Origin: Bdellovibrionota bacterium
GTDB lineage: Bacteria; Bdellovibrionota_C; UBA2361; OMII01
NCBI GenBank assembly: GCA_040398075.1
Contig: JBBAUR010000006.1
Span: 22,318-86,317 of the forward strand
Direction: 5' to 3'
Length of the DNA stretch: 64,000 nt
Numbering within the stretch: the stretch's first letter is position 1; each line of letters begins with the position of its first letter. Of this stretch, positions 20,947 to 55,477 are shown piece by piece. Under the pieces are notes generated by a model. It was not told the origin of the DNA. It did not search any database and saw only the letters and a list, made by a program, of their open reading frames with translations. The position numbers and the translations under genes are program-made.

Positions 20947-21019
20947 GCCACCTTAGCTCAGCTGGTAGAGCATCTCATTCGTAATGAGAGGGTCACGTGT
21001 TCGATTCACGTAGGTGGCT
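20947..21019 (+). tRNA. tRNA-Thr (anticodon CGU)
   Basis: Cloverleaf GCCACCT-TA-GCTC-AGCTGGTA-GAGC-A-TCTCA-TTCGTAA-TGAGA-GGGTC-ACGTG-TTCGATT-CACGT-AGGTGGC-T. Anticodon loop TTCGTAA gives CGT. Closely resembles E. coli thrW. CCA is not encoded. Confidence 0.9.
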
Positions 21020-21903: not shown

Positions 21904-22995
21904 CTACGAGAATTCCTTCACCAAAATCCGTTCGAGGATGTCGGTATCTACCTCGATGTCAGAAGCTGAGTCTACCTGAGTTTCAACTGACCGATATCTA
22001 TGTTTCGATATCGGCATGAGCACTTCGTAGCAATTACACGAATCTCTTTTTTGAAACGGAAACAGCTCTACTACAAGAGAGGCCTCCTCCATAAAGAGGG
22101 TATGAGTCATACCTGAACCGTGAGGAGCAACAACCGCATTTGCTCGCGACGCAATCCGCAGTTGATCGGTAAAAGTGAAGTCTTCGAAGAAAATGGTCTC
22201 GAATCGAAACTTACTGAGCAGGCCCTGTACTTCACTGAAATTGGTAATTCTGCGAAACGTTGCCGTGGGCTTACGAGGAATAAAAATTCTCTTAGGCGAA
22301 CTAGTCAACGGAGAATCTGAAATGACGTCGCGGTAGTATTGTCTGAGTTTTTCCAACAGTGGAAAGTTCTTGTGAGCATGGAAACCTGCGAAATAGGTTG
22401 GTATGTAAAGGTAATCGGCAAGTACGATATTTGTTGTGTGTTCCTCTATACGATAGGAGTTAATTCCGAGGAGTTCGAGACTTACGCGAGCCCACGGTGT
22501 CATAACCCTTGGTGGAATAAGATAAACACCCGTATATCCCGTGGCCTCTGCGAGGACGACCTTAGGGAGAGAATCCGTAATCCAGTGCCAGAAGCAGTAA
22601 CAGCAGGGGGAAATCAATGAGACAACGTGCGGGAGGTGCTTATTCGTATTCGGAGCGGGGGTGTGAGCATGGACGGTACAGAGATTGACCATCACCTCCC
22701 TAGCGTTCTGGCTACCGTAGTTCTGTTCCTTCAGGAGCTGCGTCTCTGACGAGAGAAGGGTCCCGCTGGCCCCGAATACCACACCGCCAGGCAGCGCGAA
22801 GAGGCCGTAGGGAAAAGCTCCGTAAATATCGTCACACAGTTGGCCCCGATAAGCCTGTGCTTCATAAAACGAGACACCCGCAACGTCTTTGACTGAGATC
22901 TGAGCATCGAGCATATTACTCAATGCACCAAACTGCTCCCTCAACGATCTGCTCAGCTCCGTATCGGGAAGACTTGTTTGTGTATCGTTTTCCAT
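21904..22995 (-). CDS. Glycosyltransferase family 61 / DUF563 protein
   Basis: CYCFWHWITDSLP (HWxxD/E motif of GT61/DUF563) and overall length match. Coding GC looks lower than the backbone. Confidence 0.7.
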   Translation of the reverse strand: MENDTQTSLPDTELSRSLREQFGALSNMLDAQISVKDVAGVSFYEAQAYRGQLCDDIYGAFPYGLFALPGGVVFGASGTLLSSETQLLKEQNYGSQNAREVMVNLCTVHAHTPAPNTNKHLPHVVSLISPCCYCFWHWITDSLPKVVLAEATGYTGVYLIPPRVMTPWARVSLELLGINSYRIEEHTTNIVLADYLYIPTYFAGFHAHKNFPLLEKLRQYYRDVISDSPLTSSPKRIFIPRKPTATFRRITNFSEVQGLLSKFRFETIFFEDFTFTDQLRIASRANAVVAPHGSGMTHTLFMEEASLVVELFPFQKRDSCNCYEVLMPISKHRYRSVETQVDSASDIEVDTDILERILVKEFS

Positions 22996-31195: not shown

Positions 31196-31723
31196 ATGTT
31201 CAAGAATTTCACTACCATGATTCTCGACGTCGATGGAGTGATGACGGACGGGAAATTCTATTACAACTCGACTGGCAAGGCTTTCAAAGCATTCGGACCA
31301 GATGACCACGATGCGCTATCTCTACTCAAGCCATATCTGCACATTCACTTTGTAACCGGCGATCATCGAGGGTTTGAGATCAGCGCGTCGAGAATCGTGC
31401 ACGACATGAATATGCCGCTCGATCTGGTTAGTACTGTAAAACGAATCGATTGGATTCGTGAGCGTTGGGATCCCAAAAGTGTGATCTATATCGGTGACGG
31501 GATCTTCGATCATTACGTGTTCCGTGAGGTCGGGTACTCTATCGCACCAGCTAATGCAGATCCCTTTGCAAAAGAAGTTGCTAACTATGTCACTCGTCGT
31601 TCTGGAGGTGACCGAGCGGTAGCAGAAGCTGCTCTCCATATCTTAGAGAAGTTTTATTCACCCTACGATCGAGCCCAATTGCCCGGGAGCGATGTGGCAC
31701 TCAGCGGCAAGTGGTCCGTGTAA
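31196..31723 (+). CDS. KdsC-family HAD phosphatase (3-deoxy-ulosonate/nonulosonate phosphate phosphatase-like)
   Basis: HAD motif I ILDVDGVMTDG and KdsC/YrbI-like length (175 aa), with the IGDGIFD motif. Confidence 0.75.
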   Translation: MFKNFTTMILDVDGVMTDGKFYYNSTGKAFKAFGPDDHDALSLLKPYLHIHFVTGDHRGFEISASRIVHDMNMPLDLVSTVKRIDWIRERWDPKSVIYIGDGIFDHYVFREVGYSIAPANADPFAKEVANYVTRRSGGDRAVAEAALHILEKFYSPYDRAQLPGSDVALSGKWSV

Positions 31724-31731
31724 GGAGAGAG

Positions 31732-33066
31732 ATGGCAATGTCAAATACTAGGTTTATCTTCGCGCAAGAGAGAAGCGTAATTGATTTACGCGAGTATATA
31801 AGAGATGCAGCTCATCCGATTCTTTGCCTTGGACCGATGTCCGTCAACTGTGTCGAGTCCGTAATTCGTGTTGCCAACCGCCTCAAGCGACCCATTCCGC
31901 TGATTGCGAGCCGCCGCCAAATAGACTGTGAGGCATTTGGTGGAGGATACGTGAATCGGTGGAACACTCGCAGCTTTGCACAGTACGTTCACGCGCGGGA
32001 CCTTGGGTACGTGCCCTTGTGCCGGGATCACGGTGGTCCTTGGCAGGGTAACGGCGAAGCAGATCTGGACGATAAGTCGGCCATGGAGCGTGCCAAGGAG
32101 TCGATGCTCGAGGATATCACATGCGGCTTTGATCTCATTCACATCGACCCATCCTTACGAGGGGGATCGCCAGCTAGTGTCGAGACAGTTGAAAAGATAT
32201 GCGAGCTGTACTCGTTCGTCGTCGAGACCGCAGCACGACTCGGTCGACGCATTGAGATCGAGATAGGCGCCGAACAACAATCAGGACATTTTTCAGAGCC
32301 GGAGGAGCTCGTTTCTCTCTTAAAGCAAATAACCAAGTTCTGTCAGCAACGGGGATTCCAGAAGCCTCTGTTTTGCGTGGTACAGACTGGTACGCTCGTC
32401 AAGGAGATGCGAAACGTAGGCCTTACCGAGGGACGTAAGAACGAAAGTTACGATCAGAAATACGCAGTTGAGAACATAGGGCGTGGAATTAAGTATCTCT
32501 CGGATATCGCTTATATAAATGGGGTCTACATCAAAGAACACAACGGTGACTATTTGAGCGACGGATCGATGGCGTTCAGGACACAGCTTCAAGTCGGGGG
32601 CATCAATATTGCGCCTGAGTTGGGTGTCTTTGAGTCAAAGTGCCTGGTATCCCTCTGTCTCGAGCTGGGCCTTGATTCGCTGCTTCAAGAGATGCTGACG
32701 ATTTTTCACAGCACACGAAAATGGGAGAAATGGCTGAGCGAGAACTCCGTGGCGACGGATCTCGATAAGGCCATCATCGCTGGCCACTATGCATTTTCGA
32801 CACCTGCATTCCTCGAGGTAAAAGAGAAGCTGGCGCATATCGTGCGGGAGAAGGAGAATATCGACCTGGACGAGTATCTCATCGGTCGGTTGTCATCGCT
32901 TGTAACTAGGCTGCTCTGGAACGCCGGTTACTATCAGTCGGTCGGGGAAGAGCTCAGCAAAATTATGGGGGAAACTTTACAACCATGTCAGTCATCGATG
33001 AGTATTTCGACGCCTTCGCTAGACGAGACCTGCCAGGTATCAGTGAGCTCCTCACAGAAGATGTGA
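31732..33066 (+). CDS. GatZ/KbaZ-family protein (tagatose-bisphosphate aldolase non-catalytic subunit / sugar-phosphate 4-epimerase-like)
   Basis: Aligns with GatZ: HPILCLGPMSVNCVESVI...PLIASRRQID...GGYV..W...LCRDHGGPWQ. Start set at the ATG preceded by SD aaggagag. Confidence 0.6.
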   Translation: MAMSNTRFIFAQERSVIDLREYIRDAAHPILCLGPMSVNCVESVIRVANRLKRPIPLIASRRQIDCEAFGGGYVNRWNTRSFAQYVHARDLGYVPLCRDHGGPWQGNGEADLDDKSAMERAKESMLEDITCGFDLIHIDPSLRGGSPASVETVEKICELYSFVVETAARLGRRIEIEIGAEQQSGHFSEPEELVSLLKQITKFCQQRGFQKPLFCVVQTGTLVKEMRNVGLTEGRKNESYDQKYAVENIGRGIKYLSDIAYINGVYIKEHNGDYLSDGSMAFRTQLQVGGINIAPELGVFESKCLVSLCLELGLDSLLQEMLTIFHSTRKWEKWLSENSVATDLDKAIIAGHYAFSTPAFLEVKEKLAHIVREKENIDLDEYLIGRLSSLVTRLLWNAGYYQSVGEELSKIMGETLQPCQSSMSISTPSLDETCQVSVSSSQKM

Positions 33067-33332
33067 CCCTCCAAGACCCAAATGTCGCGTTGGTCTCGGG
33101 GAAAGAGGCGGTTCTTGTTGAATATCAGAAGATATTCTCCTCGTTTCGGTCTATCCTCTGCGAGCTAAGGCGTCGATACATATTTGGCGACGAGTATGCC
33201 GTGGAATTCTCACTACGACTCGAAGCTCTATCGGGTGAACTTGTACGAGTGGATGGCATTGATTGCATAACTCTGTGTGACGGCCGCATCAAGGGTCTAC
33301 GCGCCTACCTGGATGTGAATCCAAAAAACTAA
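32985..33332 (+). CDS. NTF2-like / SnoaL-like small protein
   Basis: 115 aa; MSVIDEYFDAFARRDLPGISELLTEDVTLQDP pattern typical of SnoaL/ketosteroid-isomerase-like domains. Confidence 0.55.
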   Translation: MSVIDEYFDAFARRDLPGISELLTEDVTLQDPNVALVSGKEAVLVEYQKIFSSFRSILCELRRRYIFGDEYAVEFSLRLEALSGELVRVDGIDCITLCDGRIKGLRAYLDVNPKN

Positions 33333-33342
33333 TGTATAGGAC

Positions 33343-34110
33343 ATGAGTATGATAGGTCAATCTTTTGGTGGAAACGAAGTTACTCGAGTAAATCTTGCCT
33401 CTGATAAGTTCTGTGAATTTGCCGCCTCACCCTACGTATATCGGTACTACCGGTTGGAAGCGGAGGGATCCTTGGTTATCGACGGGCTGTCGTCGTTTAC
33501 GATCTTTTGTATGCCTGCTGCCGAGCCGTCCCGAGTCGTGGTCGACGAAGATACTCTCTTGTATCCAGGGGACGTCGCACAAGTCCAGGGCCGGAGCGCA
33601 AGTTTGAAGGCACACCATGCAGCAGCCATTTTAGTAGCAGGATTGTCTGGTCCGTCAGAGGAAGCTGGCGGTGTCGTTACCGTCACGAGAGCAGACAAAG
33701 TAAAGAAAGTTGTCAAGCCATGGGGGCATGAGCTTTGGATAGCCGGCGAGCATAGTGGATACGCCTTGAAGCAGATAGCGATATCAGCCCCGCATAAGAC
33801 GAGCTTGCAGTACCATCATTTTAAGTCTGAGACTAACGTCCTCTTCAGCGGACGCGCAAAGCTACACTACAAGGCGAGCGACACTGATAACAGTAGGCTC
33901 ACTCAAGCCGATATCTCGTCAGTAGAGCTTTCGATTGGCTCGGTGATCAACGTGCAGCCTCCTGTTATTCACCGGATAGAGGCAGTTACCGATCTGATGC
34001 TTTACGAAGTATCCACTCCCCATCTCGACGACGTCGTCCGAGTTCAGGATGATGCGAATCGACCTGACGGTCGGATAGAGGCTGAGCACCAGGGACAGCC
34101 ATGTACGTAG
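33343..34110 (+). CDS. Cupin-domain protein (mannose-6-phosphate isomerase type II-like cupin)
   Basis: KPWGHELWIA motif characteristic of type-II PMI / ManC C-terminal cupins. Confidence 0.6.
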   Translation: MSMIGQSFGGNEVTRVNLASDKFCEFAASPYVYRYYRLEAEGSLVIDGLSSFTIFCMPAAEPSRVVVDEDTLLYPGDVAQVQGRSASLKAHHAAAILVAGLSGPSEEAGGVVTVTRADKVKKVVKPWGHELWIAGEHSGYALKQIAISAPHKTSLQYHHFKSETNVLFSGRAKLHYKASDTDNSRLTQADISSVELSIGSVINVQPPVIHRIEAVTDLMLYEVSTPHLDDVVRVQDDANRPDGRIEAEHQGQPCT

Positions 34111-35726
34111 AAGATCTTCCGACTATTTGCATCCTCGCTGCGGGACGCGGCTCCCGCCTTGGAGAGGTTTCAGACCACCTCAATAAAGCGCTTCTGCCAC
34201 TAGGCAAGAAGGCGATTATTTCTAGGATACTGGAGAAGTTTCCTACGAGGTGCAGCTTCGTCGTGGCGCTTGGTTACAGAGGGGAACAGGTCAAGACATA
34301 CCTTTCGATGGCGCATCCGGACCTGAATATAACCTATGTCGATATACCGAACTGGCAAGGCCCGGGGAGTGGTCCTGGGCTCTCCTTGCTTTGCTGTAAA
34401 CCTGCTATTCCTGGACGCTTTATCTTCGTGGCCTGTGACACTTTGTGGGACGGAGATATCGACCTCGAGAGTCACAACGATTGGTTTGGCGTCGCCACTG
34501 TTTCAGCAGAGGAGTCGAGTCGGTACTGTAATTTCGAGGTATCTGCCGGTCGAATCTCTGCCGTCCACGACAAAGTTTCGGTAAGTGGCCCACAGTACAA
34601 AGCATTCGTAGGACTGTGCCATGTGTTCAATACAAAGACATTCTGGAGCGCGCTCGAGTCAACCTCTCTGATAAAGGGAGAGCATCAGATATCGAATGGG
34701 GTGAGCGAACTAGTAGCCCGTCACGGGCCTCACGCGGTTCCAGTCGAGTGGTATGATACCGGGACGGCCGAACAATTCGCTACGCTAGCGGCCCACTACG
34801 AACAGTTCGATTTCAGTAAGCCAGAGGAGGCAATTTACATCGTCGGCAGCCGGGTAATTAAGTACTTCTCCAAGCCCGAAATAGCCGAACATCGGGCGAA
34901 GCGAGCGCAGTCGCGACCGGGCGTTTTCCCGGAGATTGCCCAGTGCACGAACGGCTTCTACTGGTACCCTTTGCAGCCTGGACATACCTTGTACCAGGGC
35001 TGTTCGCCTCACTTGTTCACAGGGTTACTTGCGTTCCTCGATCGGGAGCTTTGGCAACCAGTACATGTGCCAGTAGACGAGCTGCGGGCCGTATGTCGTA
35101 AATTTTACGTCGATAAGACAGTAGAGAGATTGGCTCTCTACGAGAAAAAGCATCCCGCAGCGGGGAAGACCATGCGGGTCAACGGGGCCGACCTGCCAGC
35201 TATCTCTGATCTCATGTCTCGTATTCCGTGGGATGACCTGCTTGATGCTGAACCGGTCGTATTTCACGGCGATCTGCAGTTCGACAATATTCTGTTCGAC
35301 CCAAAAAGTGGTGTATTTACACTCCTCGATTGGAGGCAGGATTTTGGGGGTCGTACAGACTTTGGCGACCTGTACTACGACTTAGCCAAGCTCAATGGAG
35401 GGCTACTGCTGAATTACGACCTGATCAAGGACAATCACTTCCGCGTGACACACGAGGGTAATGGAGTCTTCTTGGATTTCGCCCGACGGTCGTCCGGGGA
35501 CACATACAAGGAGATTCTTCGCTCTTTCGTGGATACAAAGGGGCTCGATTGGAATCGAGTGGAGCTCATGACTGCTCTCATTTATCTTAATATGTCCCCC
35601 CTTCACGCAGCACCGTTCGATGAACTATTGTACGCTCTGGGCAGGCGAATGCTGTGCCAGGTACTCTACGCACGTGATTACGAAATCGACTCAACTTTAT
35701 ATCTCGGTCTCTCGAAGTCCAACTAA
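34101..35726 (+). CDS. Bifunctional sugar-phosphate nucleotidyltransferase (N-terminal) / APH-like phosphotransferase (C-terminal)
   Basis: N-terminus ICILAAGRGSRLG (sugar-1-P nucleotidyltransferase G-loop). C-terminus HGDLQFDNILFD...DW (APH/choline-kinase Brenner motif). Architecture resembles a LicC-LicA or MurU-AmgK fusion. Confidence 0.75.
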   Translation: MYVEDLPTICILAAGRGSRLGEVSDHLNKALLPLGKKAIISRILEKFPTRCSFVVALGYRGEQVKTYLSMAHPDLNITYVDIPNWQGPGSGPGLSLLCCKPAIPGRFIFVACDTLWDGDIDLESHNDWFGVATVSAEESSRYCNFEVSAGRISAVHDKVSVSGPQYKAFVGLCHVFNTKTFWSALESTSLIKGEHQISNGVSELVARHGPHAVPVEWYDTGTAEQFATLAAHYEQFDFSKPEEAIYIVGSRVIKYFSKPEIAEHRAKRAQSRPGVFPEIAQCTNGFYWYPLQPGHTLYQGCSPHLFTGLLAFLDRELWQPVHVPVDELRAVCRKFYVDKTVERLALYEKKHPAAGKTMRVNGADLPAISDLMSRIPWDDLLDAEPVVFHGDLQFDNILFDPKSGVFTLLDWRQDFGGRTDFGDLYYDLAKLNGGLLLNYDLIKDNHFRVTHEGNGVFLDFARRSSGDTYKEILRSFVDTKGLDWNRVELMTALIYLNMSPLHAAPFDELLYALGRRMLCQVLYARDYEIDSTLYLGLSKSN

Positions 35727-36471
35727 CTTCGGCACCACCGTTTATTCTCATCTTTTCTCGCATTATGGGATCGATGCGATCTACGTTCCACGTGTTGCTC
35801 CTCGCTCGGCGGGCGAACTGATCGCTGCCGTGCGAACTCTGGATGTGCAGGGCTGTAGTGTGTCGATGCCCCTGAAGGGAGATGTCTTGCCGTATCTCGA
35901 TTGGGCTGAGCCTCTCGCTGAAGAGACAGAGATGGTGAACACCATCATTCATCGAAATGGAGCGCTACACGGATATAACTGCGATGCAGCTGGTATGGCT
36001 GACTGCCTTGATGGCCTTCAGCTTGGTTCCGCCCTGATATACGGCTACGGTGCCATCTTCCGCACCGCTGTACATGTCCTCAGAAAGCACGGAGTGTCTC
36101 ATATAACAGGCATAGGAAGGGACCAACAAAAGGCACGGGCTGCTTGTGAGGAGGCCGGAATACTCTTCGGCGGGAGCTGTCGTGACGTGGCTTCCACTGG
36201 CAAGACCTTCGATATCTTGATAAACGCTACGCCTGGGGGCGCGGAGCCTACGCATGAATTGCTCCAGATCGTTCCGTTCGCTCTAAGGGTTTTCGATGTA
36301 GTGCTTTGCAAACATACTACACCACTGGTAGAGGCTGCCGTGTCGGCCGGGAAGCAGGTCACAACAGGCCAGAATATGTACATTGGTCAGCTGGCTCGTC
36401 AATTTTTTCTCTATACCGATATCTCTCCCGATCAAAGCGTAATCCTCGAGGCCGTCAGCAAGGTGCTCTGA
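35674..36471 (+). CDS. Shikimate/quinate dehydrogenase-like (AroE family) oxidoreductase
   Basis: SVSRSPTNFGTTVYSHLFSHYGID...NTI....GYNCDAAG...NATPGG parallels AroE motifs. Probable GTG start at 35674; the track ORF starts at 35620, overlapping the upstream gene. Confidence 0.6.
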   Translation: MITKSTQLYISVSRSPTNFGTTVYSHLFSHYGIDAIYVPRVAPRSAGELIAAVRTLDVQGCSVSMPLKGDVLPYLDWAEPLAEETEMVNTIIHRNGALHGYNCDAAGMADCLDGLQLGSALIYGYGAIFRTAVHVLRKHGVSHITGIGRDQQKARAACEEAGILFGGSCRDVASTGKTFDILINATPGGAEPTHELLQIVPFALRVFDVVLCKHTTPLVEAAVSAGKQVTTGQNMYIGQLARQFFLYTDISPDQSVILEAVSKVL

Positions 36472-36628: not shown

Positions 36629-38521
36629 TCAGACACCGATCTTTTTGTTGTTGTGTTCGAAGATCGGGCTGGACGGCACTCCAAAGGCTGGGAGCGGGGG
36701 AGAAACGAACAAAATCGACCTGTGCTCTGTACACAGCACATGGCGAGCGCCTTGCAAAACCAATCGATCTGCGAGCTCAAAGCATCCGCCTTTGACGCCC
36801 GCTCTCTCGTCCGACTCGTCGAACCCGTCTCCACTCAAAGCATCATCGAAGCTAAATGAGAAGCATATGCGATTAGGTAGAGGAAGAATTTGGATAGGTT
36901 CAATCGAACCTTGGGCGTTCACCGGACCCTGTACCTCCCAGGTGCTATGCTCGACTACCACCGAGTGCGGCTGCTCTGAGCCGGAGCTTACGAACTCTGC
37001 AGCAGCAAATTCAAGTAACGATCTGTTGAGTCGAGGAAGCCTATAAGCCAATTCACAAACCGTGACGATCTCTCCCCTGCATTCAGCGAGCGCAACGTTC
37101 AGCGCCGCCCCCTTGTGGAGATTGTCGTGAAAATGACAGGCAATCCAGGCGTCTAAATATTGTGCACGCTCTCTCAGGGCCGCCGGCGGCGTATTGTTCC
37201 AGAGCGAAAGCCAAATAACCTCTATCTCCTTATCGTTACTCACGGACTCAAAAAACGGCTTGAGTGTTTCGAAGCTGCCGTCTTCATAGTCCACGAGTAT
37301 GATTGAATGGCGAGGTCTTGCCTTCTGCAGGTTGAGCTTATAGTACCGAACCTCGCGTAACCAATTCGAGGTTGAGCGTTGTCCCTGGAGGTCAAATGGT
37401 ATGTGTATCCCCGAGCTTGTAGCTGTCCTCATGAACGCCGCAGGAACTACCTTGGTTAGGTCACCGGAGAAGGTTTGCGCGCCGTCAAGGATCATGCTTC
37501 TCATCATTCGATTGTGATGCAGTAGGACTTCATTTTCGTCGACAGATGCGGGCGCCTCGATTCGACTGATTCGCTTTCTCCAAAAGAGCGGCAGCTCATC
37601 GAGAGCACAGCGATAATCAGCGCCGCTCGGACTCGTGCATGCAAAGGCGGGATTCAGCGGGTTTACGTTCGTAAACCCTGGCATCCGAGCATCAGAAAGG
37701 TAATTTATCCTTATATCTCCTTCGAAGAATCCGTCGGGAATCCTGAGCGGCGGACATGTCCGAATATCTAATCCTTGATGAGAGTATGCATCGTAATGAC
37801 GGAGCAGCTCACGTTTGGGCCACAACATGGCCATCTCGGGTGATGGAATACCATCCGCTCTGAAATGTAATTGAGTGCCGAGGTTGCGCTTCAGCCAGAA
37901 GTCCTCGAGCACGGGCATACTCATCACTAACAAACTTCCCGATTCGCGCATTGCGAGCACGGCGTACTCGTCCGTATCCTCGAGAAGAGGCTGGCCTGGT
38001 TGATTGAGTTGAGAGAGGTAGACTTGTCCGAAAATCTGGCTCCAATGCGAGAACAATAAGCTCGCATATCCGTATCTTCTCGATAGCTCCCGAAGCTTGG
38101 ATAGGAGCCTCTCGAGATAGTCGATATCCTTGTCGACAAACACGTGATCGTCATTGCCGAGATACCAAACGAGCTCATCAGCAGAATTCTCAGCCTTGAT
38201 CATTTCTACCGACTCTCTCCACTGCGGTAAAAACTCATTGCGACCCCTCCTGATATAGGCGGCCGGAAACAGAGACCGGATGTAGTCATCCATTTCGTCG
38301 TAGCGTGATTCGTATTCCGAATCCAACCGATAATATATGTAGACGCGAGAGAACGGGATCACTTCCAGACTGGCGAGCATGTACCGGAATACATCGAACC
38401 GGGTATCAGGAGGGGGAAAGAGTCCTCGATCATAGAATACTCCGAGGCGCGCCTCCGTAACGAAGACATTAACAAAAAGAATCATAGATGTGCCCGATGT
38501 TTCGTACCCGATTAAGAACAA
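36629..38521 (-). CDS. Large putative glycosyltransferase (630 aa, GT-A-like with a DxD-type motif)
   Basis: GNDDHVFVDKD DxD-like motif. Position within the glycan operon. No confident family assignment. Confidence 0.5.
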   Translation of the reverse strand: MFLIGYETSGTSMILFVNVFVTEARLGVFYDRGLFPPPDTRFDVFRYMLASLEVIPFSRVYIYYRLDSEYESRYDEMDDYIRSLFPAAYIRRGRNEFLPQWRESVEMIKAENSADELVWYLGNDDHVFVDKDIDYLERLLSKLRELSRRYGYASLLFSHWSQIFGQVYLSQLNQPGQPLLEDTDEYAVLAMRESGSLLVMSMPVLEDFWLKRNLGTQLHFRADGIPSPEMAMLWPKRELLRHYDAYSHQGLDIRTCPPLRIPDGFFEGDIRINYLSDARMPGFTNVNPLNPAFACTSPSGADYRCALDELPLFWRKRISRIEAPASVDENEVLLHHNRMMRSMILDGAQTFSGDLTKVVPAAFMRTATSSGIHIPFDLQGQRSTSNWLREVRYYKLNLQKARPRHSIILVDYEDGSFETLKPFFESVSNDKEIEVIWLSLWNNTPPAALRERAQYLDAWIACHFHDNLHKGAALNVALAECRGEIVTVCELAYRLPRLNRSLLEFAAAEFVSSGSEQPHSVVVEHSTWEVQGPVNAQGSIEPIQILPLPNRICFSFSFDDALSGDGFDESDERAGVKGGCFELADRLVLQGARHVLCTEHRSILFVSPPLPAFGVPSSPIFEHNNKKIGV

Positions 38522-46298: not shown

Positions 46299-46910
46299 AT
46301 GATCATCATCATCGACTACGGGATGGGAAATCTCGGCTCAATCATCAACATCTTTAAAAAAATCGGGGTAACAGCAGTTGCTTCCTCGTCGCCCGACGAA
46401 ATAGCCAGAGCCTCCAAATTGATCCTGCCGGGAGTTGGCGCTTTCGATACAGGGATGAAGAATCTTGGGGAGAGCGGGCTCCTGGACCTTCTACACGAGA
46501 AGGTCATCGAGCAAAAAACTCCCGTATTGGGAGTTTGCTTGGGTATGCAGCTCTTGGGACAGTCGAGTGAAGAGGGCAGCTTGTCAGGCTTAGGGTGGAT
46601 CGCCGCCAAAACCGTTAAATTTCGGCTCGACCCTTCCTCACAATTTAAGATTCCACATATGGGTTGGGCGTACGTGACATCAACTCGGCCCAATCGCTTA
46701 TTTTCAGATATGCCCTACAAAGCGCGTTTCTACTTCGTCCACTCCTACCACTTTGTGTGTGATGATCTATCCGACGTAATAGCTACTGCCGACCACGGAA
46801 TCACTTTCTGCGCAGCGATCAATCGAGGTAACATATGGGGCGCTCAATTTCATCCGGAAAAGAGCCATAAATTCGGAATGCTCTTGTGTAAGAACTTTGC
46901 CGAATTGTAG
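46299..46910 (+). CDS. hisH: Imidazole glycerol phosphate synthase glutamine amidotransferase subunit paralogue (HisH-like, WbuY-type)
   Basis: MIIIIDYGMGNLGSI...LPGVGAF...GVCLGMQLL... contains the class-I GATase Cys-His-Glu triad. Confidence 0.9.
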   Translation: MIIIIDYGMGNLGSIINIFKKIGVTAVASSSPDEIARASKLILPGVGAFDTGMKNLGESGLLDLLHEKVIEQKTPVLGVCLGMQLLGQSSEEGSLSGLGWIAAKTVKFRLDPSSQFKIPHMGWAYVTSTRPNRLFSDMPYKARFYFVHSYHFVCDDLSDVIATADHGITFCAAINRGNIWGAQFHPEKSHKFGMLLCKNFAEL

Positions 46911-47599: not shown

Positions 47600-49429
47600 C
47601 TATTCGGAAGCGGTAAAGGTTCGTAGGAAGTAATCGAGCGCCATTATGGATGCAAGAGGTGCGGTAGCATCAGCAGCACCAGCCTTGTGTTGTGCCCAAA
47701 GTGAGTGAACGTAGGGCACATTTATCCACTGTCTACTCACGAATCGTGGGTCATTGAGAATAGTATCGATCCGCGGAGCCAACAAGTTTCGGAAGATGGA
47801 CTTTCCATCGTAGTAATCATCTACCGGCACACCTTGAGTAATGAGATTCTCTTGGTATCTCAGAAAGCTCGCATATCCGCTGATCTTCGGGATCATGAAG
47901 ACCTCCGGAAACTGAGTCGCTAGAAGCTCTGAGTCCCAGGTGCGAGAAAATTTTAGCTCACTCGGAAGACTGGACATTAATTCTAGGAGTGAACGATCGT
48001 GGTAAAATGGATTGAGTCCCTCGTAGTGGTCCTGCAGCGGCGCATTGAACAGGCCCCACCTCCGACCGGTCTGGGTCATGGCCAGATACTCGAATTTGTC
48101 AGCCGCCGAGATATCCATTCTTGCGAAAAACTGTCTATCGAACGAGGAAGCTGCATTCAAGAGCGCTTGTTGTGCAAAGTCCTGAGCGAGCATGGGTAGC
48201 GTCGAATTTTTTATCTGGCTCAGGATATGAAATACCACCATTCGGTGGAGCCCATCTCCCCTATTTTGTAGGAACCAGTCTGCTGAGATCCCCTCGTTCA
48301 GCACACCCATCTGGAATTTAAAATACGTCGTGGCATAATCCCCGAAAATGTGGTTGCCATTGTTGCCGTTGATTACGAAGTCATACTCACTGCGCAGCTG
48401 TTCAACGGGTAAGGCTTGAGGGAAATAGGAGCAGGGCCACGTTCCATCGTGGATTTCAAGATGTTCAGCTAGCAACTTCTCTGCTTCGGTAATCTGATAA
48501 TTGACAGGCTTCCACGGGATTCCGAGCGCGTGTGCAATTCGGGTAGATGCCCGAGAGTCTGTAGCAGGTTGTCCGTTGAACTGCATCCCGAGCGCATCGA
48601 ATGAAGAGCCGAAAACTCGCTGCATGTAACAGGCTATGATGCGAGAGTCGAAACCACCGCTCAAAAACAGCCCCTTTTTCCCCTTTACACTGTCGAGCTT
48701 AGTTACGCATGCCTCCAGACACCTATCCAGTTCAAGCGCAAAAGCGGCAGAGGATACCTCGCGGCCTATGCGCTTCTGATACGGAATTCTCCAGTACTGC
48801 TTGGTGCTACGACCCGAACGATCCCACCTGACGAATGTGCCAGCTTCGAGGCTTTTTACGTCTTCCAGGAACGTTTTGTCTCCCCAGGGTTGTCCGAGGA
48901 CTAGGTAATCAGCGATCGCCTTCCAATCGACACCGATCTTTACCCAGGGGCACGCTTTGAAGGCCTTGAGTTCAGGCGCAATCAGAATGTGGCCTTCATT
49001 GTCGCTGTAGTAAAATGTGTGTAGATGCCCATAGCAGTCGCCTACAAGGTAGTGAGTCTTAGTGGCAGAATCCGACAGGAAAAAGACGAAGCTACCGTCA
49101 GCCTTCGAAAAGAAACTTTCGCCCATCCTTTCAAAACCGTTGAGGACGATGAAGCTGTCGCTGGAATCCGCGGGCAGGCGCAGGATTTTTGCAAGGTTAG
49201 CACGATTCGAGAGGTATCCTTGAAACACACATGTGACCCCGGATTGTAGAGTGGCCAGGGGAGCGCGCTGGACTTGAGACCGAACCCCTACTAGGCCGAT
49301 ACTACCCGCGCTCGTCGTGGTGTGGACATGTGAGAGGACATCGGTACGGCAGAGAGTCGACGCGATCTTGTGTGCATCGGAAGCCGCACTTTCTACACCT
49401 ATAATCGCAACTATTCCGGACATTTGCAC
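47600..49429 (-). CDS. Asparagine synthetase (glutamine-hydrolysing) family amidotransferase (WbpS-like)
   Basis: AsnB fold with PP-loop LFLSGGFDSRIIA. The N-terminus is MQMSGIV rather than the canonical MCGI, so it apparently lacks the Cys nucleophile. Confidence 0.8.
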   Translation of the reverse strand: MQMSGIVAIIGVESAASDAHKIASTLCRTDVLSHVHTTTSAGSIGLVGVRSQVQRAPLATLQSGVTCVFQGYLSNRANLAKILRLPADSSDSFIVLNGFERMGESFFSKADGSFVFFLSDSATKTHYLVGDCYGHLHTFYYSDNEGHILIAPELKAFKACPWVKIGVDWKAIADYLVLGQPWGDKTFLEDVKSLEAGTFVRWDRSGRSTKQYWRIPYQKRIGREVSSAAFALELDRCLEACVTKLDSVKGKKGLFLSGGFDSRIIACYMQRVFGSSFDALGMQFNGQPATDSRASTRIAHALGIPWKPVNYQITEAEKLLAEHLEIHDGTWPCSYFPQALPVEQLRSEYDFVINGNNGNHIFGDYATTYFKFQMGVLNEGISADWFLQNRGDGLHRMVVFHILSQIKNSTLPMLAQDFAQQALLNAASSFDRQFFARMDISAADKFEYLAMTQTGRRWGLFNAPLQDHYEGLNPFYHDRSLLELMSSLPSELKFSRTWDSELLATQFPEVFMIPKISGYASFLRYQENLITQGVPVDDYYDGKSIFRNLLAPRIDTILNDPRFVSRQWINVPYVHSLWAQHKAGAADATAPLASIMALDYFLRTFTASE

Positions 49430-49609: not shown

Positions 49610-50377
49610 ATGTATCGCGCTCGAGTTATGCCCTGCCTCCTCTTAAAAGATGGGGTCTTGGTGAAAACCGTGAAGTTCAAGAACCCCACGTACGTTGGGG
49701 ACCCGGTCAATGCCATTCGGATATACAACGAACTGGAGGTGGACGAATTGGTCTTCCTCGATATTACCGCCACCGCCGGTGGTAAGAAGCCTCCCTTCAA
49801 AGTCCTAGCTGAAATCGCAGATGAATGCTTCATGCCACTTGCCTACGGAGGGGGTATCCGTAGCCTCGAGGAGGCGCGCACTATCTTTAGCCTCGGCTTT
49901 GAGAAGGTCGTGTTGAACACGGCTGCTTTTGAGCAGCCCGAATTAGTGCGAAGCATCGCCGAGACCTTCGGCAGTCAGAGTATCGTGGTATCCGTAGACG
50001 CTCGTGCTAAATTACTCGGGGGTTACGAAGCCTATGTTCGCAACGGACAGGTCAGTACCAAAATGGAGGTCGTCCGATATGCAAAACGCGCCGTTGAATT
50101 AGGTGCCGGTGAGCTTCTTCTCTATTCAATCGATCGCGATGGCACTCACTCTGGCTACGACTTATCTCTCATTCAACGGGTTACCGCTGCAGTATCAGTG
50201 CCTGTAGTCGCATGTGGTGGAGCACACAGCGTAGAAGATTTCGGACGTGCCGTTCATCAGGCAGGCGCTTCGGCATGCGCGGCAGGAAGTATGGTTGTTC
50301 ATTTTGGTCCTCACCGGGCGGTGCTGATCAACTTCCCAGATGCACAGGTAATTGACAGAGAGCTCACACGTCATTAG
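49610..50377 (+). CDS. hisF: Imidazole glycerol phosphate synthase cyclase subunit paralogue (HisF-like, WbuZ-type)
   Basis: MYRARVMPCLLLKDGVLVKTVKF...VGDPVNAIRIYNELEVDELVFLDITA...(beta/alpha)8 HisF signature. Confidence 0.9.
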   Translation: MYRARVMPCLLLKDGVLVKTVKFKNPTYVGDPVNAIRIYNELEVDELVFLDITATAGGKKPPFKVLAEIADECFMPLAYGGGIRSLEEARTIFSLGFEKVVLNTAAFEQPELVRSIAETFGSQSIVVSVDARAKLLGGYEAYVRNGQVSTKMEVVRYAKRAVELGAGELLLYSIDRDGTHSGYDLSLIQRVTAAVSVPVVACGGAHSVEDFGRAVHQAGASACAAGSMVVHFGPHRAVLINFPDAQVIDRELTRH

Positions 50378-54325: not shown

Positions 54326-55477
54326 CTAGCTTTCTCGTGATTTCAACACAATCTCCGAGGCTCGCGTGAATGCTATGCTCCGTGGCGGAATATTTTTCAC
54401 AACGACACAGCCCGAGCCTACAATTGAGTGCTCTCCTAGCACCAGGCGAGGTTCGACGAAGACCCCCGTGCCGAGCTTGATCTCGTCCTCGATCGTCACT
54501 GAGCCCGATGTCATGACACCCGGTCCGAATGTACAGTGACTACCAACTATGTTGTGGTGCTCGATATTGCAATGCGCTGATATGAAATTATTACTTCCGA
54601 TCTCTGCGCAGGGGCCCACCGTAACGTTCGCTAGGATCACGTTACCATCTCCGAGCGCGGTCTCTATACCGATATAAGCACTCCGATGGATTACGTTCAC
54701 CAGCGGGATGCCCGCATCCCGCAATTTCTCAAAAACCTCCTTGCGAACGGAGATTGAGCCTGAGACGGATATTACAGCAGCGTCGAAGAGACCACGTGCA
54801 AGATCGGCTTTCATGGCAGCGGCGTCGACGCTTCCACATACAGGGATACCATAAATGCTCTGTCCATGCTTCGAGCTCTCGTCGTCATAAATACACACCG
54901 GACACAGGGAGCTTCCAACCATTGCATCGAGAACCTGAATGAAGGCCTTTCCTCCTCCGACGACGGCTATACGGCGAAAACGATTCGTGTTCGGAGAACG
55001 CGCAACCACTGCATCACGAGCGGAGCGGCGACTCGTCGAGAGGATGAAGTCATTTACTATCTTTTCGGTAATCAGTGCTTGCGAAAATACGCTGGGATTT
55101 ATGCCATGACTATCGAGTAGCTTCTTTGCCTTGGCAGTTATCGTTTTAGCTGAATCTCCGGCTGATTGAGGAGATCGCGACTCGACGACAGGAGCAAGTG
55201 CGCGTTGGTACTCGGCCGCATCTGCTTCCGCATAGCGCTCGAGTACGAGAAAGAGTCCTTGATTGACCTGAACCATGTCTCCCAAGGAATGTGAGGTGAC
55301 AAACACACCATCGGTCTCGGCATGAACTTCGTAGGAGGCTTTACTGGAGTCTAGTGTCATGACGAGATCGCCCCTCTTCACTCGTTCTCCGTTCGAAAAG
55401 CGTATCTCGGCTACCTTGTAGGTGGCATCGTTGACATTCAACTGCTCGCAACGCTGTATGTTGGTCTCGTGGATCAT
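54326..55477 (-). CDS. Chimeric E2-like protein: lipoyl domain + E3-binding (PSBD)-like segment + PglD/NeuD hexapeptide acetyltransferase domain
   Basis: N-terminal lipoyl-attachment motif VMTLDSSKASYEVHAETDGVFV. Linker with a PSBD-like AKAKKLLDSHGINPSVF. C-terminal NeuD/PglD-like RIAVVGGGKAFIQVLDA plus LbH repeats. Confidence 0.75.
   Translation of the reverse strand: MIHETNIQRCEQLNVNDATYKVAEIRFSNGERVKRGDLVMTLDSSKASYEVHAETDGVFVTSHSLGDMVQVNQGLFLVLERYAEADAAEYQRALAPVVESRSPQSAGDSAKTITAKAKKLLDSHGINPSVFSQALITEKIVNDFILSTSRRSARDAVVARSPNTNRFRRIAVVGGGKAFIQVLDAMVGSSLCPVCIYDDESSKHGQSIYGIPVCGSVDAAAMKADLARGLFDAAVISVSGSISVRKEVFEKLRDAGIPLVNVIHRSAYIGIETALGDGNVILANVTVGPCAEIGSNNFISAHCNIEHHNIVGSHCTFGPGVMTSGSVTIEDEIKLGTGVFVEPRLVLGEHSIVGSGCVVVKNIPPRSIAFTRASEIVLKSRES

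Follow-up and report, generated by a model that had tools for sequence, protein, structure and literature searches.

A conserved four-gene cassette in a Bdellovibrionota glycan island with a proposed role in making a nucleotide-activated sugar

The window analysed here is a stretch of 64,000 nucleotides of the Bdellovibrionota contig JBBAUR010000006.1, in which six ORFs are packed tightly into one operon-like run (Table 1); the earlier description of six contiguous plus-strand genes is borne out by the ORF coordinates. Gaps and overlaps between genes do not exceed about 14 nt (the cupin gene and the gene for the nucleotidyltransferase and kinase fusion, NTK, overlap by 10 nt), except for overlaps that fall within C-terminal tails, and the flanking genes are divergent on the upstream side and convergent on the downstream side. 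There is a single, weak promoter-like match on the plus strand, and terminator-like matches are weak and few in number (9 found, with 5.1±2.3 expected), three of them internal on the plus strand. An AAGGAG Shine-Dalgarno sequence for the GatZ-like gene straddles the termination codon of the HAD gene, and the most likely start is either ATG 31738, as in the public gene call, or ATG 31732; the GTG at 31711, implied by the HAD/GatZ-like overlap that had been noted earlier, is less likely. The dehydrogenase lies within an ORF spanning 35620-36471 and its probable start is GTG 35674, because the alignment with HI0607 begins at that residue.

Table 1. Features of the operon-like run and its convergent neighbour, in window positions
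Feature	Position	Strand	Remarks
KdsC-type (C0 cap) HAD phosphatase	31196-31723	+	175 aa; TIGR01670, Pfam Hydrolase_3
Divergent GatZ/KbaZ-like class II aldolase-fold protein	31738-33066	+	442 aa; profile search, AlphaFold2/Foldseek
SnoaL_2 / NTF2-like protein	32985-33332	+	115 aa; Pfam SnoaL_2
Type II PMI-like cupin	33343-34110	+	255 aa; PF01050
NTK (nucleotidyltransferase + kinase fusion), whole gene	34101-35726	+	NTP_transf_3 + APH
NTK N-terminal sugar-1-phosphate nucleotidyltransferase domain	34101-34796	+	residues 1 to ~232
NTK C-terminal APH/choline-kinase-fold kinase domain	34797-35726	+	residues ~233-541
SdhL-class (HI0607-like) shikimate-dehydrogenase-family NAD(P) oxidoreductase	35674-36471	+	265 aa; ORF opens 35620
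U630, convergent 630-aa protein	36629-38521	-	no family assigned by Pfam, NCBIfam, PHROG or PDB

All six family assignments proposed earlier hold, five of them through Pfam and NCBIfam and the GatZ link through profile search and predicted structure, and none of the curated equivalog families of NCBIfam reaches its cut-off for any cassette protein. The HAD protein matches the KdsC subfamily TIGR01670 (E 1.3e-19, 70.6 bits, under the curated cut-off of 107) as well as Hydrolase_3, is 62% identical to its cassette counterpart in Clostridium saccharoperbutylacetonicum, and belongs to a group of 101 sequences in which the DVDGV and GDG..D motifs are kept. The cupin scores 28.6 bits against PF01050 (MannoseP_isomer), over the 23.6 cut-off, and aligns to the C-terminal region of TIGR01479. 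Its catalytic domain spans approximately residues 118-240, preceded by an N-terminal extension that is missing in the archaeal and CPR versions, and the motifs of type II PMI (KPWG.E, S.QYH..K.E, HR and E.STP..DDV.R..DD..R) are kept in 71 sequences, suggesting that it may isomerise a ketose phosphate to an aldose phosphate. The dehydrogenase matches Shikimate_dh_N and scores under the cut-off of every NCBIfam AroE equivalog; among solved structures 1npy (HI0607) is its closest relative (E 5.6e-32), and it keeps the catalytic Lys of SMPLK and the catalytic Asp of YNCD.

A less direct relationship is seen with the GatZ-like protein, for which Pfam gives no match to the GatZ family (PF08013) at E<=0.01, whereas homologues 42-46% identical to it do carry PF08013. 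Profile searches retrieve 3txv (E 1.6e-6) and 2fiq (E 1.8e-5), and an AlphaFold2 model (pLDDT 87, falling below 60 in a low-confidence tail past about residue 410) has the same two structures as its best Foldseek matches at E about 1e-15, with class II FBP/TBP aldolases coming next. Among 137 GatZ-like sequences D97, H98, H135, D137, E175, K266, H268, N269, D271 and N290 are invariant. GatZ itself was recently shown to be a fructose-6-phosphate 4-epimerase, with Asp87, His88, Glu171 and His257 as proposed catalytic and metal residues (PMC11907403), and all of these are kept in the GatZ-like protein. We therefore propose, from sequence and model, that it is either a metal-dependent enzyme epimerising a ketose phosphate at C4 or an aldolase.

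Comparison with other genomes shows that HAD, GatZ-like, cupin and NTK genes form a conserved four-gene module. They co-occur in about 140 of 165 fetched loci, of which 85 are cellular (the window's own DNA included, as one SnoaL-positive locus) and 80 are viral-type, the latter being predicted viral contigs from IMG/VR; conservation of the neighbourhood, which the earlier note had proposed checking, is thus very strong. NTK is accompanied by a cupin in 74 of the cellular loci, a GatZ-like protein in 70 and a HAD in 65; the corresponding counts in IMG/VR are 70, 74 and 41. The same enzyme set is seen in hundreds of genomes, be they bacterial, archaeal or predicted viral ones, its cellular carriers including Bdellovibrionota, Legionella, Planctomycetota, Verrucomicrobia, Elusimicrobia, Clostridium, CPR and DPANN/Thaumarchaeota. 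Gene order varies between loci, and natural fusions join HAD to GatZ-like, GatZ-like to cupin, and cupin to NTK. Full-text literature searches found no paper describing the set, and no curated family represents it, so that in this respect the earlier view that it matches no canonical route stands.

The other two genes have a different standing. SnoaL (SnoaL_2, E 5.3e-16), previously counted as a pathway member, is a rare accessory outside the core, present in only five loci (3/85 cellular, the window among them, and 2/80 viral-type); in L007, L008 and L135 the homologue immediately precedes the cupin gene. In the window its ORF shares 82 nt with the 3' end of the GatZ-like ORF, where the low-confidence tail is encoded, and is missing from the public annotation of this DNA. 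The SdhL-type dehydrogenase is indeed a member here, but of an optional oxidoreductase slot: it is present in 48/83 cellular and 21/80 viral-type loci, a classical SDR fills the slot in 18 cellular loci and never together with it (p=6e-9), and approximately 45% of loci have no reductase within 8 kb. The phosphatase slot is likewise interchangeable. Among 162 loci, 103 have only a KdsC-type enzyme, 28 only a small phage-type HAD (RB69 gp51/AfhF-like or S-SRM01-type), one has both and 30 neither, so that the two types are mutually exclusive (p=3e-14), and in most of their 28 loci the small HADs directly adjoin a GatZ-like or a cupin gene.

The phage connection extends to NTK, which is a remote homologue, as judged by profile comparison, of the bifunctional phage enzymes AfhE, RB69 gp52/53 and that of cyanophage S-SRM01. 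The kinase profile matches RB69 gp52 (E 1.3e-5), with which it shares the motif D-x-R-x-x-F-G...G...Y-D-x-A-K; the full-length profile gives 97.8% probability for the enzyme of S-SRM01, which is encoded between a SIS isomerase gene and that of a small HAD phosphatase; and the relationship to AfhE-type kinases is distant (80% probability, 23% identity). Phage HY126 offers a precedent grounded in experiment: according to PMC13326640 (citing He et al. and Mahler et al. 2025), AfhE, with the same arrangement of N-terminal nucleotidyltransferase and C-terminal APH-like kinase, places a phosphate on C1 of Araf5P and later forms UDP-Araf, the HAD phosphatase AfhF takes off the 5-phosphate between these two steps, and an isomerase provides the aldose-5-phosphate. 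The phage route thus runs from aldose-ω-phosphate through the 1,ω-bisphosphate and the 1-phosphate to the NDP-sugar. Two differences count against the analogy: the isomerase of the cassette is a cupin and not a SIS protein, no SIS isomerase being found in any of 162 loci, and AfhF has no sequence relationship to the HAD of the window. The same logic of isomerase, anomeric kinase, distal phosphatase and nucleotidyltransferase is found in ADP- and GDP-heptose synthesis, and with these precedents (for the phage route, as that source presents it; PMC13326640) the combination is not as unprecedented as had been thought.

A plausible scenario, to which we give about an even chance, is that the operon makes a nucleotide-activated aldose from a ketose ω-phosphate of central metabolism for the surrounding glycan island. 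Folds and family relationships, catalytic residues, recurrence of the cassette, its fusions and the exchange of unrelated enzymes within a slot are shown here; every substrate, the step order and the product are what we infer. The GatZ-like protein would invert C4 of the ketose phosphate by metal-dependent retro-aldol/aldol chemistry, for which the GatZ/KbaZ conversion of fructose-6-phosphate to tagatose-6-phosphate is the model, and the cupin would convert the ketose phosphate to an aldose-ω-phosphate. By analogy with the phage enzymes the NTK kinase domain would then phosphorylate the anomeric C1, the HAD would strip the distal (ω) phosphate from the resulting aldose-1,ω-bisphosphate, and the NTK nucleotidyltransferase domain would yield the NDP-sugar. 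The phosphatase, taken in the earlier note as the final step, is placed mid-pathway because of the AfhE/AfhF route and heptose-type logic. The dehydrogenase, or an SDR elsewhere, may perform an optional NAD(P)-dependent tailoring step and SnoaL may be an occasional accessory; that these five steps leave the dehydrogenase without a place counts against the scheme.

Alternative readings concern mainly the activated hydroxyl and the first step. The nucleotidyltransferase domain is closest to sugar-1-phosphate nucleotidyltransferases, in favour of the scheme above. Its top structural neighbours include LicC, however, and among solved structures the NTK kinase domain comes nearest to the choline kinase LicA, so alcohol-phosphate/CDP-alcohol chemistry must still be reckoned with. 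In such a LicC/LicA- or Gtp-style route to a CDP-polyol or CDP-sugar, the GatZ-like protein, cupin and reductase would make a sugar or polyol that the phosphatase sets free, the kinase would re-phosphorylate a specific, non-anomeric hydroxyl, and after activation a phosphodiester-linked substituent would be transferred, on the model of phosphocholine, CDP-2-glycerol, CDP-ribitol and CDP-6-glucitol. This remains a live rival, but an unlikely one: Pfam finds no LicD, TagF or CDP-alcohol-transferase families among 24 island ORFs, the commonest families linked with the cassette are either GT2/GT-A-like or unknown, many loci do without the reductase, an aldose-forming isomerase is superfluous for going from ketose to polyol, and both the homology of NTK to AfhE-type enzymes and the exchange of the phosphatase with small phage-type HADs, AfhF-like ones included, point to the sugar route. 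GatZ-family proteins can also serve as partners of aldolases, and longer sugars are built by class II aldolases of the YdjI type, so that step 1 could be carbon-carbon bond formation and not epimerisation. With the same activation logic, an aldose phosphate joined to a dihydroxyacetone unit would then give a C7-C9 ketose phosphate to be isomerised, reduced and activated, as with YdjI or in KDN/Kdo logic ahead of KdsC-type phosphatases.

This aldolase reading draws on the class II aldolase fold, shared with YdjI (6ofu), on the intact Asp/His/Glu residues, on the place of the phosphatase in the KdsC/KDN-9-phosphate phosphatase branch, where known substrates are C8-C9 sugars from aldol-type synthases, and on the HAD-GatZL fusion P0126, which suits consecutive steps. 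We consider it improbable, since the one activity demonstrated in the GatZ/KbaZ family is C4 epimerisation of hexulose-6-phosphate (PMC11907403), the GatZ-specific ligand set (His, His, Glu, not three His) is kept, nothing in the cassette provides an unusual aldehyde acceptor, and the KdsC-type enzyme can give way to small phosphatases of the AfhF type, whose substrate is a pentose bisphosphate. AmgK/MurU-like salvage, in which the kinase would act at C1 of a free sugar taken up from outside or released by glycan turnover, nucleotide activation would follow and the other genes would be catabolic or unrelated, is very improbable, as it would leave the obligatory linkage and fusion with isomerase, epimerase/aldolase and phosphatase unexplained, and the cassette sits in biosynthetic glycan clusters with no transporters or glycosidases nearby. 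The rarity of SnoaL elsewhere and the lack of the dehydrogenase in many related loci would suit six genes adjacent by chance and forming no functional unit, the probability of which is negligible given the tight spacing, the Shine-Dalgarno sequence at the HAD stop and the spread across domains of life; for the four core genes chance adjacency is effectively refuted by co-occurrence, varied gene orders and fusions.

The setting of the preferred scheme in a glycan cluster, proposed earlier, agrees with the island contents, which include four DegT aminotransferases, SDR sugar dehydratases/epimerases, glycosyltransferases and acetyltransferases. U630 has no match in Pfam, NCBIfam, PHROG or PDB save a marginal one to GT2 (E 0.07), and homologues of its N-terminal ~330 aa adjoin the cassette in 10 other cellular loci and directly follow the GatZ-like gene in 28/80 viral-type loci; our guess is that it is a cassette partner, such as a transferase using its product.

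Among the products suggested earlier, an NDP-ketose or a cyclitol finds no support, there being no cyclase, and the PMI-type isomerase indicates an aldose; the phosphorylated substituent survives in the LicC/LicA-style rival. GatZ-type C4 inversion combined with PMI-type C2 stereochemistry would give a talo-configured hexose or heptose, the simplest guess on stereochemical grounds but one that we regard as doubtful. The product is most likely a rare sugar in nucleotide-activated form, destined for a surface glycan and made by an enzyme set that is newly recognised and whose activation design is already known from heptose and phage routes.

The segment 31196-36471 of the window contains six plus-strand open reading frames, coding in order for a KdsC-type HAD phosphatase, a GatZ-like protein, a SnoaL_2 protein, a cupin, a fused nucleotidyltransferase-kinase (NTK) and an SdhL-like dehydrogenase. 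The Shine-Dalgarno sequence of the GatZ-like gene, AAGGAG, spans the stop codon of the HAD gene, and the two larger gene overlaps (82 nt and about 53 nt) both fall within C-terminal tails of the upstream proteins that are modelled at low confidence and are longer than those of their homologues. The upstream neighbour of the set is divergent and the downstream neighbour convergent, and terminator-like and promoter-like matches within the region are few, weak and near the level of shuffled sequence. Given this layout, the orientation of the neighbours and the few, weak internal signals, co-transcription of the genes as an operon is plausible. The SnoaL_2 reading frame, which overlaps the final 82 nt of the GatZ-like gene, is missed by the public gene call on the identical contig. 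Exact look-ups find no match to the NTK sequence in public assemblies, and an exact copy of the GatZ-like protein on just one Logan/NCBI contig.

Features of the window discussed in the text. Positions are those of the whole stretch.
Feature	Position	Strand	Remarks
tRNA gene	20947-21019	+	Rfam, 67.8 bits
GT61 glycosyltransferase	21904-22995		first glycan gene
HAD phosphatase	31196-31723	+	
GatZ-like protein	31738-33066	+	ATG 31738 is the start in the public gene call
SnoaL_2 protein	32985-33332	+	
Cupin	33343-34110	+	
NTK	34101-35726	+	
SdhL-like dehydrogenase	ORF from 35620	+	probable start GTG 35674, where the HI0607 alignment begins
U630	36629-38521	-	630 aa
HisH-like glutamine amidotransferase	46299-46910		
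Asparagine-synthase-like protein	47600-49429	-	
HisF-like cyclase	49610-50377		
E1 dehydrogenase and lipoyl/acyltransferase pair	54326-57450	-	

All six family assignments made in the earlier note hold up in Pfam and NCBIfam, that of the GatZ-like protein by profile and structure; the profile searches that it had proposed find NTP_transf_3 and APH in NTK, PF01050 in the cupin and the shikimate dehydrogenase N-terminal domain in the dehydrogenase. With the equivalog cut-offs of the June 2026 NCBIfam release applied to all six proteins, no equivalog is reached. The phosphatase has HAD motifs I and IV but scores 70.6 against TIGR01670, the KdsC equivalog (cut-off 106.95), 64 against NF007019 (cut-off 208) and 58.6 against the KDN-9-P phosphatase model (cut-off 180), and is a KdsC-like HAD rather than KdsC itself. 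The cupin matches PF01050, the C-terminal catalytic domain of type II phosphomannose isomerase (PMI), with 28.6 bits against a gathering threshold of 23.6, and the motifs KPWG.E, S.QYH..K.E, HR and E.STP..DDV.R, which we take to be those of type II PMI, are kept across 71 sequences. NTK is a single polypeptide in which a sugar-1-phosphate nucleotidyltransferase precedes a kinase of the APH/choline-kinase fold (AF2 model, pLDDT 91), the architecture of phage AfhE. Single-sequence searches of the PDB with the GatZ-like protein, the cupin and the kinase domain are uninformative.

The dehydrogenase misses every AroE equivalog cut-off, its best equivalog being NF009202 at 155 bits (cut-off 306). 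Its best solved relative is HI0607 (SdhL; E 5.6e-32), with which it shares an S-x-S..P..FGTT N-terminal motif and the catalytic Lys/Asp dyad; it differs from the SdhL class in its setting, a sugar-activation cassette in which it is interchangeable with a short-chain dehydrogenase (SDR). The scores below the cut-offs, the glycan-cassette context and the filling of the same slot elsewhere by an SDR place it, as judged from sequence, outside AroE.

Pfam gives no match to the GatZ-like protein at E<=0.01, and TIGR02810 reaches E 0.0056 with 15.6 bits, far under its cut-off of 569. PF08013, the GatZ/KbaZ family of fructose/tagatose-6-phosphate 4-epimerases and aldolase partner subunits, is carried by homologues at 42-46% identity. 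A profile search of the PDB finds 3txv (E 1.6e-6) and 2fiq (E 1.8e-5), and Foldseek with the AF2 model (pLDDT 87) ranks the same two structures best (1.2e-15 and 1.9e-15), followed by dozens of class II FBP, TBP, sulfofructose-P and YdjI aldolases. Residues D97, H98, H135, D137, E175, K266, H268, N269, D271 and N290 are invariant among 137 homologues, and D97, H98, E175/E179 and H268 correspond to GatZ D87, H88, E171 and H257. E. coli GatZ was recently shown to epimerise fructose-6-phosphate to tagatose-6-phosphate, with Asp87, His88, Glu171 and His257 as the proposed catalytic set (PMC11907403). At the level of profile and predicted structure the relationship to GatZ is solid and extends to these proposed Asp-His, Glu and His residues, although the window protein is only about 15% identical to the solved members and falls in a clade of its own whose genes always accompany cupin and NTK genes rather than GatY/KbaY or PTS genes.

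Full-length homologues of NTK, at about 50% identity or less, number in the thousands, and 638 representatives reach E<=1e-30 in a library clustered at 50% identity. The earlier note had called for a gene-neighbourhood search, and this reveals a conserved core: within about 8 kb of NTK in 85 cellular loci (80 at one genome per species and five from exact-protein look-ups) a cupin is present in 74, a GatZ-like gene in 70, a KdsC-type HAD in 65 and an SdhL-like gene in 49, with SnoaL in three, one of them the window's own DNA. Cupin isomerase and HAD are adjacent both in the window and in the majority of the 162 loci, cellular and viral-type. The bacterial carriers are Bdellovibrionota, a Legionella MAG, Planctomycetota, Verrucomicrobia, Elusimicrobia, Gemmatimonadota, SAR86 and many CPR lineages; Nano-, Woese- and Pacearchaeota and one Thaumarchaeote represent the archaea, and Clostridium saccharoperbutylacetonicum (N1-4) and Sulfuriflexus mobilis are cultured carriers. 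No cassette is present in the plasmid collection searched, and full-text literature searches return no description of the cassette or its gene combination; a seeming GatZ match in a paper on Campylobacter HS:19 is the name of an author.

Three layouts are seen: that of the window, one in which an additional gene of 274 aa (U275) separates the GatZ-like gene from the cupin gene, and one in CPR and DPANN with the order [SdhL]-HAD-NTK-GatZ-like-[SDR]-short cupin, the bracketed genes being optional. Since linkage is kept despite this shuffling, and natural fusions join HAD to GatZ-like, GatZ-like to cupin and cupin to NTK, gene organization shows that the four core genes work together. SnoaL homologues lie directly upstream of the cupin in one Gemmatimonadota MAG, one Roizmanbacteria MAG and one IMG/VR contig, a distribution that suggests a rare but genuine accessory. 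U275 (about 274-275 aa) occurs in 15 loci, such as L004:11161-11988 and L009:6354-7178 among the cellular ones, and is absent from the window. It is unusually conserved, its alignment columns averaging 70% identity between Clostridium, Legionella and Verrucomicrobia, and has no match in Pfam, NCBIfam or the PDB; its motifs IILNRN...VVEAGSD...LLTNDTE look GT-A-like by eye. The Clostridium copy has no similarity to the dehydrogenases, of which it was considered a diverged form.

Relatives of NTK are also found on 188 IMG/VR (predicted viral) contigs, and among the best 80 of these loci a GatZ-like gene is present in 74, a cupin in 70 and a homologue of U630, the gene convergent with the operon in the window, in 28. 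A HAD is present as well, and many of the contigs, which measure up to 385 kb at 28-52% GC, carry the whole cassette in the order cupin-NTK-HAD-GatZ-like-U630, as in L110:7526-12115. Methyltransferases, B12-radical SAM enzymes, a carbamoyltransferase and AdoHcy hydrolase, genes of glycan or auxiliary type, flank the cassettes of L110 and of a second such locus, L106, and no virion hallmark (capsid, terminase) lies within ±8 kb of either; the contigs may belong to viruses or giant viruses or may be cellular DNA that was mis-binned. We also note that on the contig of JGI metagenome 3300059473 with the closest related cassette (protein P0001), a PPDK-like/PEP-utilising protein, a GATase, an APS-kinase-like protein, an NTP transferase and SnoaL_2 lie within 10 kb, a set that presumably resembles the Campylobacter O-methyl phosphoramidate genes (Cj1415-Cj1418).

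Two positions of the cassette are filled by alternative enzymes. Among 83 cellular loci, SdhL is present in 48 and a classical adh_short SDR, usually between the GatZ-like gene and the cupin, in 18; because the two never co-occur (Fisher p=6e-9) they are seen as alternative fillers of one redox slot, which is optional, as only about 55% of all loci have either. Similarly, a KdsC-type HAD alone is found in 103 of 162 loci and a small phage-type HAD alone (RB69 gp51/AfhF type or a homologue of the phosphatase of cyanophage S-SRM01) in 28, with both in one and neither in 30, so that the one kind excludes the other (p=3e-14); in most of its loci the small HAD lies directly against the gene for the GatZ-like protein or the cupin. 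No SIS-type isomerase takes the place of the cupin in any of the 162, from which the cupin would be the isomerase of the module. The exchange of SdhL for SDR in a sugar-activation cassette argues for a sugar substrate rather than shikimate. The literature on SdhL offers only an E. coli gene adjoining a sorbose operon: in one lineage, ST648, sdhL is directly upstream of the L-sorbose PTS operon (PMC12817954). This position likewise hints at ketoses, and not shikimate, as possible substrates of SdhL-class enzymes.

The closest parallel in design comes from phages. A 2026 paper on arabinosylated 5-hydroxycytosine in phage DNA summarises experiments on HY126, in which, as outlined there, an arabinose-5-phosphate isomerase supplies the substrate of AfhE, a nucleotidyltransferase-N/kinase-C fusion that phosphorylates arabinofuranose-5-phosphate at C1 and later forms UDP-arabinofuranose, the HAD phosphatase AfhF taking off the 5-phosphate between the two AfhE reactions; the RB69 counterparts listed are gp52/53 (AfhE), gp51 (AfhF) and gp55 (isomerase) (PMC13326640). 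The profile of the window kinase domain aligns with RB69 gp52 over 211 columns (hhalign, prob 80%, E 1.3e-5), including HGDxxFxN and an unusual D-x-R-x-x-F-G...G...Y-D-x-A-K motif, and the profile of full-length NTK can be aligned over its whole length with an 'NDP-sugar synthase' of S-SRM01 (prob 97.8%, E 8.5e-13); BLASTP of the nucleotidyltransferase domain against gp53 gives E 0.17. The window and the phage pathway have in common the fusion, a ketose-P/aldose-P isomerase and a HAD phosphatase; the kinase is a probable remote homologue of RB69 gp52 and the whole protein one of the related S-SRM01 enzyme, and phosphatases of the AfhF or S-SRM01 type replace the KdsC type in 28 related cassettes. 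They differ in that the window isomerase is a PMI-type cupin and not a SIS protein, the phosphatase is KdsC-type, a GatZ-like enzyme (nearly always) and often a dehydrogenase are added, and the setting is a cellular glycan island rather than a DNA-modification cluster. We regard isomerase, NTK and phosphatase as a recurring design with one experimentally characterised member; the sugar of the cassette is probably not arabinose. In the cultured Synechococcus phage S-SRM01 itself (MW015081.1, 195088-197500), a SIS isomerase, the NTK-like enzyme and a small phosphatase form a triad inside a cluster of GDP-fucose genes and fucosyl- and other glycosyltransferases, and this looks like glycan synthesis rather than DNA modification, linking the AfhE design to phage glycans.

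ADP- and GDP-heptose synthesis follows the same four-step chemistry: ketose-7-phosphate isomerisation by GmhA, anomeric phosphorylation, distal dephosphorylation by GmhB and nucleotidylation, with kinase and nucleotidyltransferase fused in HldE or separate as HddA and HddC. The window nucleotidyltransferase domain weakly resembles HddC and shares its fold, not that of the cytidylyltransferase-like domain of HldE, whereas the other families differ: a cupin stands in place of the SIS isomerase, an APH-like kinase in place of a ribokinase or GHMP kinase and a KdsC-type in place of a GmhB-type HAD, and there is an extra C4-epimerase- or aldolase-like step. None of these heptose-pathway families is present in the cassette, which agrees with the earlier note in setting it apart from the heptose route; by this comparison it would work like the NDP-heptose pathway and is no member of it.

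The operon is located within a glycan island of roughly 35 kb flanked by housekeeping genes. The island encodes four DegT-type aminotransferases, several SDR sugar epimerases/dehydratases, a second, stand-alone sugar nucleotidyltransferase, GT61 and GT-B-like transferases, hexapeptide acyltransferases, GFO/IDH/MocA oxidoreductases and an asparagine-synthase-like protein with HisH- and HisF-like partners, a trio that we take to resemble WbpG/HisH2/HisF2, a set associated with the acetamidino groups of amino sugars. A tRNA gene directly precedes the first glycan gene, a position that fits a variable island inserted at a tRNA locus. Unusual in a glycan island, a fused alpha/beta TPP-dependent E1 dehydrogenase (658 aa) adjoins a protein with a lipoyl/biotinyl-attachment domain and hexapeptide acyltransferase repeats, and the pair may supply an unusual acyl group. 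U630 has no match in Pfam, NCBIfam, PHROG or the PDB and is unrelated to U275. Homologues of its N-terminal ~330 aa lie beside the cassette in 10 other cellular loci as well as the 28 viral-type loci, and conserved N-D-H and H-x-D-x-x-x-H motifs suggest a metal site; U630 may be a transferase for the cassette product.

From the folds, homologies, catalytic residues, linkage, fusions and slot interchange described here we infer substrates, step order and product of a general scheme, to which we give an even chance, leading from a ketose-ω-phosphate to an NDP-aldose. The GatZ-like enzyme would invert C4 of the ketose-ω-phosphate and the PMI-type cupin would isomerise the product to an aldose-ω-phosphate; the NTK kinase domain would then make the aldose-1,ω-bisphosphate, the HAD would convert this to the aldose-1-phosphate and the NTK nucleotidyltransferase domain would form the NDP-aldose, with optional redox tailoring by SdhL or SDR and the rare SnoaL accessory completing the set. 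If the GatZ reaction and PMI stereochemistry are retained, the product would be talo-configured (talose from fructose-6-phosphate or D-glycero-D-talo-heptose from sedoheptulose-7-phosphate), a stereochemical guess only and a rather improbable one.

Structural neighbours would favour a CDP-alcohol donor of the LicC/LicA or Gtp type: LicA is the closest solved structure to the window kinase, LicC is near-closest to the nucleotidyltransferase, LicCA fusions have the domain order of NTK, and the reductase would gain a role. This likeness is structural only, as NTK has no PDB sequence match to LicA or LicC at E<=1 and the cassette no significant sequence match to LicC/LicA or the Gtp1-3 CDP-2-glycerol pathway. 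Moreover, NTK is probably homologous to AfhE-type enzymes, the phosphatase slot is interchangeable, the reductase is dispensable, the sugar-phosphate enzymes linked to the cassette have no counterpart in the choline and glycerol routes, and a Pfam scan of 24 island ORFs finds no LicD- or TagF-type transferase. Having neither sequence membership nor a LicD-type partner, the cassette would not be counted as a phosphocholine system, and we consider a CDP-alcohol product unlikely.

That the GatZ-like enzyme is instead an aldolase building a C7-C9 sugar would fit the KdsC/KDN-9-P-type phosphatase and the YdjI-like fold, and is judged decidedly unlikely; a role in salvage seems very improbable. Chance juxtaposition of the six genes, which is excluded for the four core genes by their conserved linkage, is scarcely credible. 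Returning to the NDP-aldose scheme, two products suggested in the earlier note fare poorly: a cyclitol-like unit is rejected, there being no cyclase present and an ordinary SDR being able to replace SdhL, and a nucleotide-activated ketose is not favoured because the isomerase is aldose-forming.

The overall design is already known from HldE/GmhB and AfhE/AfhF, and there is no new principle; what is new are the enzyme families in the isomerase and phosphatase slots, the added GatZ-like step and the SdhL/SDR slot. It is likely that the cassette yields a new nucleotide sugar. Taken as a whole, the proposal is of an undescribed NDP-sugar, such as an NDP-D-talo-hexose or -heptose or a redox-tailored derivative, made by families not previously so used (GatZ-type 4-epimerase, PMI cupin, AfhE-like kinase/nucleotidyltransferase, KdsC-type phosphatase and SdhL), as a major overlooked source of glycan diversity, and we hold this tentatively, with somewhat less than an even chance. 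It is directly testable with six soluble enzymes and commercial sugar phosphates. Bacterial and archaeal glycobiology would gain a new nucleotide sugar together with a new route to it, a large GatZ-like clade now annotated 'tagatose-6-phosphate kinase' or 'aldolase non-catalytic subunit' would acquire a biosynthetic role, and the orphan SdhL dehydrogenases, a class of shikimate-dehydrogenase homologues, would receive a substrate context and their first physiological role. The phage AfhE/AfhF design, itself a recent discovery, would be carried over from DNA arabinosylation to the glycans of cells. The family has many members, most of them in uncultured lineages and predicted viral contigs, about whose glycan chemistry next to nothing is known, and, if the proposal is true, it is an overlooked contributor to the diversity of surface or virion-associated glycans in CPR, DPANN, many environmental bacteria and large viruses.
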